Assembly: GCF_022846255.1 (NCBI RefSeq)
Contig: NZ_AP025682.1
DNA: 64,000 bases
Direction: 5' to 3' (one strand)
DNA from: Escherichia coli
GTDB lineage: Bacteria; Pseudomonadota; Gammaproteobacteria; Enterobacterales; Enterobacteriaceae
The notes beneath the pieces were generated by a model, which had not been told where the DNA came from, ran no database searches, and saw nothing but the letters and a program-made list of their open reading frames with translations. Both the position numbers and the translations under genes were made by a program. This document shows, piece by piece, positions 32,699 through 39,630 of the stretch (positions are counted from its first letter, which is position 1; each line of letters opens with the position of its first letter).

Positions 32699-32770
32699 CT
32701 TACCATCTCGTTTTACAGGCTTAACGTTAAAACCGACTTAAGCGTGATATTCGCTATTATCGGCGTAATT

Positions 32771-32788
32771 TGTTTTATATGCTAAACA
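32771..32788. promoter_or_regulatory. Candidate NadR operator upstream of nadA
   Basis: tgttttatatgctaaaca approximates TGTTTA-N6-TAAACA, about 75 bp upstream of nadA. Confidence 0.55.
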
Positions 32789-32944
32789 AGATAGTCGAAT
32801 GGTGGGGAAAAGTCACTCGAATTACGTATGAGATGCCGAATGCCACACTTTGCGTCTTATTCCTCCGACGTAGAGTTGTTTACGCAGCAAGCGCGGAGTA
32901 TGTCATCAGGGTCAAGAATTGAAATTGAGAGATGCCTGAATAGC

Positions 32945-32974
32945 AAAAAAGCGCCTTTAGGGCGCTTTTTTGCA
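32945..32974 (-). terminator. Rho-independent terminator at the 3' end of the tRNA operon (symmetric, could act bidirectionally)
   Basis: aaaaaagcgcc-tttag-ggcgctttttt: GC stem flanked by A/T runs on both sides. Confidence 0.75.
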
Positions 32975-32975
32975 T

Positions 32976-33051
32976 TGGTGGGTCGTGCAGGATTCGAACC
33001 TGCGACCAATTGATTAAAAGTCAACTGCTCTACCAACTGAGCTAACGACCC
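32976..33051 (-). tRNA. lysQ: tRNA-Lys (anticodon UUU)
   Basis: 76 nt, reverse complement is GGGTCGTTAGCTCAGTTGGTAGAGCAGTTGACTTTTAATCAATTGGTCGCAGGTTCGAATCCTGCACGACCCACCA. Confidence 0.93.
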
Positions 33052-33084
33052 CTTGCGGGATTATGCTGCTTTAATCATTCAGGA

Positions 33085-33160
33085 TGGTGGGTCGTGCAGG
33101 ATTCGAACCTGCGACCAATTGATTAAAAGTCAACTGCTCTACCAACTGAGCTAACGACCC
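33085..33160 (-). tRNA. lysZ: tRNA-Lys (anticodon UUU)
   Basis: Identical 76 nt tRNA-Lys copy. Confidence 0.93.
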
Positions 33161-33208
33161 ATACGGGTGTTACCTGAAAGATTTCTACTCGGAACCAATG
33201 TTTAAAAT

Positions 33209-33284
33209 TGGTGGGTCGTGCAGGATTCGAACCTGCGACCAATTGATTAAAAGTCAACTGCTCTACCAACTGAGCTAACGACCC
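33209..33284 (-). tRNA. lysY: tRNA-Lys (anticodon UUU)
   Basis: Identical 76 nt tRNA-Lys copy. Confidence 0.93.
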
Positions 33285-33287
33285 GAG

Positions 33288-33363
33288 TGGTGGGTGATGA
33301 CGGGATCGAACCGCCGACCCCCTCCTTGTAAGGGAGGTGCTCTCCCAGCTGAGCTAATCACCC
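33288..33363 (-). tRNA. valZ: tRNA-Val (anticodon UAC)
   Basis: 76 nt, reverse complement GGGTGATTAGCTCAGCTGGGAGAGCACCTCCCTTACAAGGAGGGGGTCGGCGGTTCGATCCCGTCATCACCCACCA. Confidence 0.93.
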
Positions 33364-33414
33364 GATACTGCGCTGGATACTACAAACTACTTCCACCGAA
33401 CCCACCGTAATCAG

Positions 33415-33490
33415 TGGTGGGTCGTGCAGGATTCGAACCTGCGACCAATTGATTAAAAGTCAACTGCTCTACCAACTGAGCTAACGACCC
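33415..33490 (-). tRNA. lysW: tRNA-Lys (anticodon UUU)
   Basis: Identical 76 nt tRNA-Lys copy. Confidence 0.93.
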
Positions 33491-33492
33491 GG

Positions 33493-33568
33493 TGGTGGGT
33501 GATGACGGGATCGAACCGCCGACCCCCTCCTTGTAAGGGAGGTGCTCTCCCAGCTGAGCTAATCACCC
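33493..33568 (-). tRNA. valT: tRNA-Val (anticodon UAC)
   Basis: Identical 76 nt tRNA-Val copy. Confidence 0.93.
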
Positions 33569-33603
33569 GATACTACGCTGGATACTACAACTAACTATGT
33601 TAG

Positions 33604-33679
33604 TGGTGGGTCGTGCAGGATTCGAACCTGCGACCAATTGATTAAAAGTCAACTGCTCTACCAACTGAGCTAACGACCC
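33604..33679 (-). tRNA. lysT: tRNA-Lys (anticodon UUU)
   Basis: Identical 76 nt tRNA-Lys copy; promoter-proximal gene of the cluster. Confidence 0.93.
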
Positions 33680-33802
33680 ACTTTTTCGTTGCTTTCGGTT
33701 TTTTTGATATCCCGTGGCAACGGCGGCATATATTACTGATTTCAGACTTGAGCGCAACAAAAATTTCGATGTAGATCACTCAACTGCTTATGATTCGCAC
33801 GA

Positions 33803-33834
33803 CACGACCAGAAATAATGCGACTTCTGGTCGTG
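33803..33834 (-). terminator. Stem-loop downstream of cpoB (candidate tol-pal operon terminator, weak U-tract)
   Basis: Inverted repeat cacgaccagaa / ttctggtcgtg with a 10 nt loop, 10 bp after the cpoB stop. Confidence 0.4.
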
Positions 33835-33843
33835 TGTTATGCA

Positions 33844-34635
33844 TTACATCGCGTTCAGACGTTTTTGCGCCTGTTTAGCGCCATCAGTACCAGGGTATTT
33901 ACTGATAACCTGCTGGTATACGGCTTTCGCTTTTGCGGTGTCACCTTTGTCCTGCATGATGACGCCGACTTTAAACATCGCATCTGCAGCCTTCGGTGAC
34001 TTCGGATAGTTTTTCACTACCGAAGCAAAATAATACGCCGCATCATCTTTTTTACCCTTGTTGTAGTTTAACTGACCCAGCCAATAATTGGCGTTTGGCA
34101 GGTAAGTTGAATCAGGGTAATTTTTGATGAAATTCTGAAATGCCACCATTGCGTCATCCTGGCGGGATTTATCCTGCACCAGCGCAATAGCTGCATTGTA
34201 ATCCGTGTTTGCATCACCGCTTTTCACCGGCGCGCCAGCATTCGCAGTACCAGCATCAGCTGTCGGCGTCGTTGATGCCGCCACACCGCTTTGATCGCCG
34301 CTGGTTGATTGCGCCGCTGCACCACCGCTGCTGAGGCTGTCGATCTGCAACAGGATCTGCTTTTGCCGCTCCACGACCTGATTCAGTTGATACTGATTTT
34401 CCTGAATCTGACCACGCAGGGAATCAATATCGGATTGATTATCAGAGAGTTGTTGCTGGAGTTGGGTTAAAAGCTGGCTGTGAGCATTAGAAATACGCTC
34501 AAGTTGAGTGACGCGGTCTTCGACCGAGCCTGAGCCGACACTACTGATTGGTGCCTGAGCAAAAGCGGCCCAGGGGGCCGCTATACCAACCAGTAACGAC
34601 AGACTCAATAGTTGATGTCTGAAGTTACTGCTCAT
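33844..34635 (-). CDS. cpoB: Cell-division coordinator CpoB (YbgF), coiled-coil plus TPR
   Basis: 263 aa; signal peptide, Gln-rich coiled coil, C-terminal TPR; last gene of tol-pal cluster. Confidence 0.92.
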   Translation of the reverse strand: MSSNFRHQLLSLSLLVGIAAPWAAFAQAPISSVGSGSVEDRVTQLERISNAHSQLLTQLQQQLSDNQSDIDSLRGQIQENQYQLNQVVERQKQILLQIDSLSSGGAAAQSTSGDQSGVAASTTPTADAGTANAGAPVKSGDANTDYNAAIALVQDKSRQDDAMVAFQNFIKNYPDSTYLPNANYWLGQLNYNKGKKDDAAYYFASVVKNYPKSPKAADAMFKVGVIMQDKGDTAKAKAVYQQVISKYPGTDGAKQAQKRLNAM

Positions 34636-34644
34636 GCAATTCTC

Positions 34645-35190
<546 letters not shown>

Positions 35191-39481: not shown

Positions 39482-39630
39482 TTTACATCCCGGTAATGCA
39501 ACAAAAGTTAGAGCTTTTAAACGCTGCTACTATACGCGCGCGATTGAGGTTTGGGAATGAGGGCAAGTTAAGGGAGCGTAAAAATTTATGGGCCTGACTC
39601 GGCCCATAAATTTTTAAAGAGAATTCTGAT

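Follow-up and report, generated by a model that had tools for sequence, protein, structure and literature searches.

Between the stop codon of cpoB and the lysT tRNA operon of Escherichia coli lies a strong stem-loop with no U-tract behind it, and the question is what such a structure does there. The original prediction offered two possibilities, an RNase-protective 3' hairpin or a factor-dependent terminator insulating the tRNA promoter; a third is that the palindrome acts mainly as DNA, within the promoter of the neighboring operon. We addressed this question in a 64,000-nt stretch of contig NZ_AP025682.1 (assembly GCF_022846255.1), hereafter the window, which runs in reverse orientation relative to strain MG1655 (MG1655 coordinate = 780389 + (33844 - window position)). 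The transfer of coordinates rests on a 99%-identical alignment; within the 164-nt cpoB-lysT intergenic region (33680-33843), a single base distinguishes the window from MG1655. The locus is composed as follows.

33844-34635, minus strand: cpoB (ybgF), an open reading frame of 263 aa, 99% identical to MG1655 CpoB
33844-33846, minus strand: cpoB stop codon TAA, from the open reading frame 33844-34635
33802-33835, minus strand: stem-loop of 14 bp, 12 of them perfect Watson-Crick pairs at the DNA level
33835-33822, 33821-33816 and 33815-33802, minus strand: 5' arm, loop CGCAUU and 3' arm of the stem-loop, from the fold
33796-33843, minus strand: weak outer helix UGCAU (33843-33839) / GUGCG (33800-33796), predicted, E. 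coli only
33723-33766, minus strand: lysT core promoter, read from the sequence, its alignment columns invariant in 73 species
33766-33759, minus strand: UP-like A/T-rich block of the lysT promoter, read from the sequence
33757-33752, minus strand: lysT -35 element TTGCGC, read from the sequence
33735-33730, minus strand: lysT -10 element TAATAT, read from the sequence, followed by a GC-rich discriminator
33604-33679, minus strand: lysT, from ARAGORN and Rfam tRNA matches

The lysT transcription start was assumed at about 33723, taken as 7 nt after the -10 hexamer. According to ARAGORN and Rfam, lysT is the first in a series of seven tRNA genes (Lys-Val-Lys-Val-Lys-Lys-Lys) reaching 32976, with nadA beyond. 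The spacing of this operon (32976-33679, minus strand) differs between strains: four of its spacers measure 33-51 nt in the window versus 132-149 nt in MG1655 (L001 3055-4153), where each is about 100 nt longer and carries an insert that closes with a duplicate of the tRNA-Lys 3' end (ATCCTGCACGACCCACCA). None of the four inserts is present in the strain of the window; in MG1655, a common GCAACGGCCCGTAGGGCGAGCGAAGCGAGTC block stands before at least two of them. The lysT leader (33686-33721, minus strand), which shows a single A/C change relative to MG1655 at window position 33702, contains a predicted hairpin, GUUGCC...GCAAC, whose 5' half is invariant in 73 species and whose 3' half varies (GCAACG, GCAGCG, GCGGCA). 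On the other side of the locus, the last part of pal, together with its junction to cpoB (34606-34744, minus strand), matches the Rfam family RF02782, 'CpoB/ybgF ICR thermometer', over the full model and at 153.7 bits versus a gathering score of 51.

The stem-loop lies exactly where it had been predicted. The arms at 33803-33813 and 33824-33834 (window 33803-33834 reads cacgaccagaa-ataatgcgac-ttctggtcgtg) are perfectly complementary; a repeat finder lengthens them to 12-nt perfect arms (33802-33813 and 33824-33835, 10 nt between), and the fold to a stem of 14 bp, ACACGACCAGAAGU / AUUUCUGGUCGUGU in the cpoB-sense RNA, closed by the 6-nt loop CGCAUU. Counted from the cpoB stop codon, the predicted arm lies 9 nt and the start of the full stem 8 nt downstream, the latter distance being 5 nt where the stop is TGA. 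Folding free-energy calculations bore out the strength of the structure, with energies of -25.6 to -26.5 kcal/mol and z of -5.4 to -5.75 over the folds; the 61-nt fold reached -26.5 kcal/mol (z = -5.75, none of 200 shuffles being equally stable) and the 65-nt fold gave z = -5.44. The absence of a U-tract was also confirmed, since CGUGCGAA, directly 3' of the stem, has one U in 8 nt. A terminator and promoter scan of 32700-34700 returned no terminator-like site and also missed the lysT promoter, and a permissive Rfam search (E <= 10) gave no family match overlapping 33790-33850. The weak outer helix lies outside the conserved element, with only 73% of its cells paired and many A.C and other mismatches. 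Elsewhere in the window, perfect inverted repeats occur at 39579-39616 (16-nt arms TAAAAATTTATGGGCC / GGCCCATAAATTTTTA, 6 nt between) and at 63062-63095 (12-nt arms TATTTATGCAAT / ATTGCATAAATA, 10 nt between).

Compared with a canonical intrinsic terminator, the cpoB hairpin has the stable GC-containing stem and is indistinguishable in stem length, loop size and stability, but it lacks both the U-rich tract of about 7-8 nt and an upstream A-tract. The missing U-tract explains why terminator programs find nothing at the cpoB 3' end. The tRNA operon provides a contrast: just after lysQ, at 32943-32973, a perfect 13-nt inverted repeat, GCAAAAAAGCGCC / GGCGCTTTTTTGC, with A/T tracts on both sides, looks like the intrinsic terminator of that operon in a bidirectional form.

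Published RNA 3'-end maps place the steady-state ends of the cpoB mRNA at this hairpin.

33797-33800, minus strand: mapped steady-state cpoB 3' ends (MG1655 780433, 780434 and 780436), 2-5 nt 3' of the stem base

The last base of the stem corresponds to MG1655 780431. Adams et al. 2021 (PMC7815308, Supplementary file 1) list 780434 as the 'primary' Term-seq end of cpoB in at least two growth conditions, and in the 61-nt context printed in the same paper it lies 3 nt beyond the final base of the stem. The TRS study (PMC10687069, Supplementary Data 2-4), whose termini combine its own Term-seq and RNAtag-seq with earlier data (R = 0.86-0.96), gives 'Primary' termini of cpoB at 780433, 780434 and 780436, prints the same hairpin with -21.6 kcal/mol, and has few 3' ends in the 67 nt that follow (R = 0.86-0.96). 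The hairpin therefore demonstrably coincides with a mapped RNA 3' end in E. coli, and 3'-end mapping, by which the original prediction had proposed to be judged, finds the primary ends at the stem base rather than elsewhere. The end as such is already contained in these high-throughput tables; the hairpin sets the correct 3' boundary of the tolB-pal-cpoB transcript, with a 3' UTR of 45 nt. In Supplementary Data 4 of PMC10687069, expression of the 3' UTR is 2.2-2.7 versus 2.5-3.1 for the coding region. We rejected a separate 3'-UTR-derived small RNA because these levels are about equal, so that no such RNA accumulates on its own. A U-tail is needed for Hfq binding, and the cpoB hairpin has none. 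Searches of the literature on ProQ with cpoB and on a tol-pal terminator yielded nothing usable.

RNA ends of this kind have been described as a class. Dar and Sorek 2018 (NAR 46:6797, PMC6061677) reported that the steady-state ends of Rho-dependent E. coli transcripts are sharp and directly follow stem-loops which match terminator hairpins in stability but have no U-tails. The same study showed that longer tails are trimmed by PNPase and RNase II as far as such stem-loops. The cpoB hairpin shares the structural features of this class, being a stable U-less stem-loop located directly downstream of the coding region with the RNA end a few nucleotides past the stem. It differs in that the downstream region has no C-over-G bias and in that a tRNA promoter and structured tRNAs follow, so that processing by RNase P or RNase E could supply the precursor end instead of Rho.

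We consider that the hairpin is probably, with a likelihood of about 60%, a U-less exonuclease-blocking 3'-terminal stem-loop of the tolB-pal-cpoB mRNA of the type described by Dar and Sorek. The RNase-protective hairpin, one of the two functions originally proposed, is thus the best fit to the mapped ends, the missing U-tract and the RNA-type covariation presented below. According to this model, RNA polymerase would read past the hairpin because no U-tract releases the transcript; PNPase and RNase II, as in the published model, would then shorten the longer precursor from its 3' end and stall at the base of the 14-bp stem, leaving a stable end 2-5 nt beyond it and shielding the upstream mRNA. 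Trimming and protection at cpoB are the steps that we infer. The overhang of 2-5 nt is shorter than the in vitro stall distances reported for RNase II and PNPase, a point against this model. The precursor end itself might originate from Rho termination, from read-through into the lysT operon followed by cleavage by RNase P or RNase E, which is equally plausible, or from a stall at the protein-covered, busy lysT promoter.

The alternative that survives best is that the hairpin itself stops transcription, as a factor-assisted or non-canonical U-less terminator (helped by NusA/NusG, by Rho or by polymerase stalling where the lysT promoter is occupied) that shields the tRNA promoter from tol-pal read-through. 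We regard it as unlikely, without being far-fetched. The sharpness of the mapped ends, all within 5 nt of the stem and with few others in the next 67 nt, is what a terminator would produce, but trimming gives the same steady-state ends, and steady-state 3' ends cannot tell termination from trimming. Several families keep a hairpin at a fixed distance from the lysT promoter, and a Northern study of the lysT operon describes no transcript as cpoB read-through, both in agreement with termination. Against it stand the single U in the 8 nt after the stem and the empty terminator scan, and a terminating ribosome should cover the 5' arm, as the stem begins so close to the stop codon (8 nt, or 5 nt with TGA).

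The involvement of Rho, one factor through which the terminator of the original prediction could act, found no backing. Adams et al. do not give the end at 780433-780436 among their Rho regions and call no bicyclomycin-sensitive region there, although the 800-nt windows of that assay cover the abundant tRNAs here and, according to the authors, can mask such cases, so that it is uninformative beside these highly expressed genes. The only cpoB position that appears among the Rho regions (PMC7815308) is an internal one, 779749. We rejected a Rho loading site immediately downstream because the 122 nt down to lysT contain 24 C and 26 G, with ratios of 0.67-1.12 in 40-nt windows, and thus show no C-over-G bias and no C-rich tract. 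For the same two reasons, no listed bicyclomycin-sensitive region and no C-over-G bias, the Rho version of the trimming model is unsupported as well.

A separate hairpin lies at the other end of cpoB. At 34559-34581 (minus strand), within the signal-peptide codons and 76 nt into the gene, GCGGCCC-CCU-GGGCCGC followed by UUUUG forms a canonical-looking intrinsic terminator hairpin with published 3' ends at MG1655 779673/779674 (window 34560/34559), which Adams et al. (PMC7815308) place internal to cpoB and PMC10687069 labels 'alternative primary' for pal. The bicyclomycin-sensitive position 779749 of Adams et al. lies near it, with a Rho score of 1.74. This hairpin looks like an attenuator setting the pal:cpoB ratio.

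Among 5424 complete E. coli genomes, 5378 carry a 51-nt segment with the cpoB hairpin at 99% identity or more, and the segment occurs at one place per genome (median). Through CpoB we collected 80 loci, in most of which the cpoB-lysT spacer measures 159-175 nt; the hairpin was found in 81/81 Escherichia and Enterobacteriaceae loci examined. The conservation across enterobacteria that the original prediction had asked about was thus borne out, as it was in all 73 Enterobacteriaceae sequences of the alignment A2, on which the following counts (of sequences, not of independent events) are based.

33826-33831, minus strand: invariant 5'-arm core GACCAG, A2 columns 16-21, identical in 73/73
33806-33813, minus strand: invariant 3'-arm core UUCUGGUC, A2 columns 34-41

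The core GACCAG / TTCTGGTC is as conserved as the -35, the -10 and the discriminator of lysT, and the loop G at 33820 (A2 column 27) is also invariant in the 73 sequences, with the rest of the loop and the flanks variable. The outer stem changes in a manner that preserves pairing. Double compensatory changes occur in the outer four pairs (21, 3, 9 and 8 sequences), five pairs in all showing double changes; 92% of the helix cells are paired, a share that falls to 35-51% once the partner column is shifted by 1-3 positions; and the covariation score was reached by none of 500 shuffles. Among the states other than Watson-Crick pairs, G.U was found in 64 cells at seven pair positions and A.C in one cell at one position. 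As transitions in a DNA palindrome should give both equally, this excess implies that pairing is selected in the cpoB-sense RNA, and it is what selection on that RNA, and not on a symmetric DNA site or an antisense RNA, would be expected to give. Pairing alone, however, does not explain the invariant core, because G.U is absent from the six core pairs (0/438 cells), which never vary, and common in the outer four (51/292), and because the loop base is fixed too.

Beyond the Enterobacteriaceae, distant CpoB loci were obtained from a representative library and from a second homologue search seeded with a 55%-identical homologue, the comparison being made without Yersinia and Serratia. In all distant loci lysT and its promoter follow cpoB, with 130-180 nt between the two genes. 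Hafnia (z -5.9), Proteus (z -5.1), Dickeya (z -5.1) and Pectobacterium (z -3.0) have strong hairpins, likewise U-less but unrelated in sequence, that start 5-16 nt past the stop; those of Erwinia tracheiphila, Pantoea and three further lineages are only weak (z -0.1 to -1.65). The hairpin is, as judged from these sequences, frequently maintained but neither universal nor indispensable, since several lineages carry only weak hairpins. In Dickeya dadantii, a published native RNA sequencing map records a 3' end classed as 'strong' 51 nt past cpoB, at 1458046, and in the Dickeya locus that we compared, which is from a different strain and hence gives an approximate position, +51 falls within 1-3 nt of the helix base. 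We read the lack of the 'pred' tag carried by neighboring ends as meaning that no program predicted a terminator there. Experimental 3' ends at cpoB are thus available for E. coli and, less securely, for Dickeya.

Two side observations concern other loci. In the locus L085 (2262-2322; CpoB 51% identical), no hairpin follows the stop codon; the A/T-rich UP-like block is instead flanked by the two 11-nt arms of an inverted repeat, CGGAAGCGCAA ... TTGCGCTTCCG, the second of which overlaps the lysT -35. A metagenome scan with GACCAGAAA-N6-TTTCTGGTC (the spacing in the cpoB hairpin is N8) returned 47 unrelated palindromes, none of them beside lysT, and is uninformative on extra copies of the hairpin. 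It did show a recurring, near-identical sequence around the query pattern, AGTGCACTGACCAGAAAGTTCTTTTTCTGGTCGATATAAACAAA, in more than 10 contigs from different samples and unrelated to cpoB (L104, L105, L108, L109, L111, L112, L121 and L138; in reverse orientation L101, L103, L113, L115 and L117).

The fixed core led the comparison to the other side of the intergenic region, the lysT promoter. Anchored on the lysT -10 hexamer, the hairpin spans about -79 to -112 from the assumed start and its centre always lies between -95 and -100. The description of the hairpin as separating the operon from the tRNA promoter is therefore misleading, as it sits inside the conserved lysT upstream region. We scanned this region with what we take to be the Fis core motif, GNNYRNNWNNYRNNC (G at -7, C at +7, Y-R steps and an A/T centre; seven key positions), which is degenerate, about 2% of positions matching at 6/7.

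33786-33800, no strand assigned: candidate Fis-like 15-mer GTGCGAATCATAAGC, centre about -70, putative Fis site I
33806-33842, no strand assigned: candidate overlapping Fis-like 15-mers, putative lysT upstream activating region
33820-33806, 33831-33817 and 33842-33828: candidate Fis-like 15-mers centred at -90, -101 and -112, respectively

The -70 candidate, just 3' of the hairpin, matches GNNYRNNWNNYRNNC at 7/7 in 72 of 73 species and at the same offset, and matches of at least 6/7 are found at -90, -101 and -112 in 60, 68 and 63 of the 73 species, respectively. Among the distant families, Pectobacterium and Dickeya have 7/7 matches at -110 (GCACAAAAATTGCGC) as well as at -90, and Hafnia, Erwinia and Pantoea have them at -90; most of these families also have a 6-7/7 match at -69 or -70. 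In eleven loci (nine distant ones, Salmonella and Klebsiella), 15 of 15 perfect matches fall at -69/-70, -81, -90 or -110/-112. A block TAAGCAGTT(A/G)AG (33779-33790, minus strand, A2 columns 57-68) is nearly invariant in Enterobacteriaceae and recognizable near the lysT promoter, at about -56 to -67, in the L083 lineage as well as in Dickeya, Pantoea and Erwinia. Part of the block coincides with the 3' half of the Fis-like site predicted at -70, and the block runs on past the predicted Fis core.

Fis sites are located near -71, -102 and -143 at rrnB P1 and near -71, -91 and -122 at tyrT. The lysT upstream region resembles such Fis upstream activating regions in its putative Fis sites at -70, -90 and -101/-112, its GC-rich discriminator, its A/T-rich UP-like block and its stringent-type promoter. 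To our knowledge, Fis regions are not normally long perfect inverted repeats, nor are they known to serve as the 3' hairpin of an upstream mRNA. A database-compiled table names Fis as an activator of the lysT operon; no Fis binding data at lysT were found in the literature searched.

These similarities raise the possibility that the palindrome is mainly a DNA element, a lysT upstream activating region with two or three Fis sites or the site of another dimeric protein, and that the RNA hairpin and the 3' end are by-products. Such an element would account for the loop G and the core GACCAG / TTCTGGTC, which in 73 species vary no more than the -35 and -10 do, for the recurrence of the Fis-like 15-mers at similar positions (-70, -90 and -110) in families with unrelated hairpins, and for the core motif retained by Pantoea despite its weak hairpin; the Fis entry in the database table agrees with it. 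Nevertheless, it seems decidedly improbable to us: (i) the outer-stem positions, which are free in the Fis motif, covary, (ii) the 64:1 ratio of G.U to A.C is not predicted by a DNA site, (iii) two Fis sites would need neither such long stems nor such perfect pairing, the Pectobacterium stem being 14 bp and extended by G.U pairs, (iv) the hairpin coincides with an RNA 3' end in both E. coli and Dickeya, and (v) the motif is degenerate and approximate, and the literature searched yielded no report of Fis binding here. A resemblance to a FadR-like or other known operator was rejected, since it is only a vague one, with the half-sites wrongly arranged; an RNase III substrate was rejected too, because the conserved helix has just 14 bp and its outer extension is not conserved.

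Finally, a chance palindrome or a REP-like repeat without a specific role can be dismissed as highly improbable, since, although the window holds 18 inverted repeats of at least 11 nt, the hairpin has z of about -5.5, a single copy per E. coli genome, no Rfam match, family-wide conservation with covariation and a mapped 3' end at its stem base, which refute this reading. With REP elements the cpoB hairpin shares an extragenic position within a 3' UTR, a palindromic sequence and the capacity to block exonucleases; unlike them, it is single-copy, locus-specific and conserved by descent, and judged by eye it does not resemble the REP consensus.

Returning to the exonuclease-blocking 3'-terminal stem-loop, the hairpin alone is of little consequence. 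It is, however, a clean and well-conserved example of a U-less 3' stem-loop, and a convenient test case for whether such ends arise via Rho, via RNase processing at a downstream tRNA or via a block at a busy promoter.

The RNA and the DNA evidence may also be combined. We tentatively propose, as a possibility suggested by the sequence comparisons and one that may well prove wrong, that the element is dual-coded: as RNA it would form the exonuclease-blocking 3' end of cpoB, and as DNA its roughly 34 bp and the adjacent 15-mer would form a predicted Fis-binding upstream activating region of lysT (sites at about -70, -90 and -101/-112), so that the whole 45-nt 3' UTR of cpoB would lie in the promoter of its neighbor. 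With its 3' arm held constant by protein binding, the hairpin would tolerate only a complementary 5' arm, and several families of Enterobacterales would have retained this layout while the sequence itself turned over. The overlap with the predicted Fis sites would explain the invariant hairpin core. If this is true, a single sequence serves two neighboring transcription units, in RNA stability for one and promoter activation for the other, and it would caution against treating invariant hairpin cores as purely structural.
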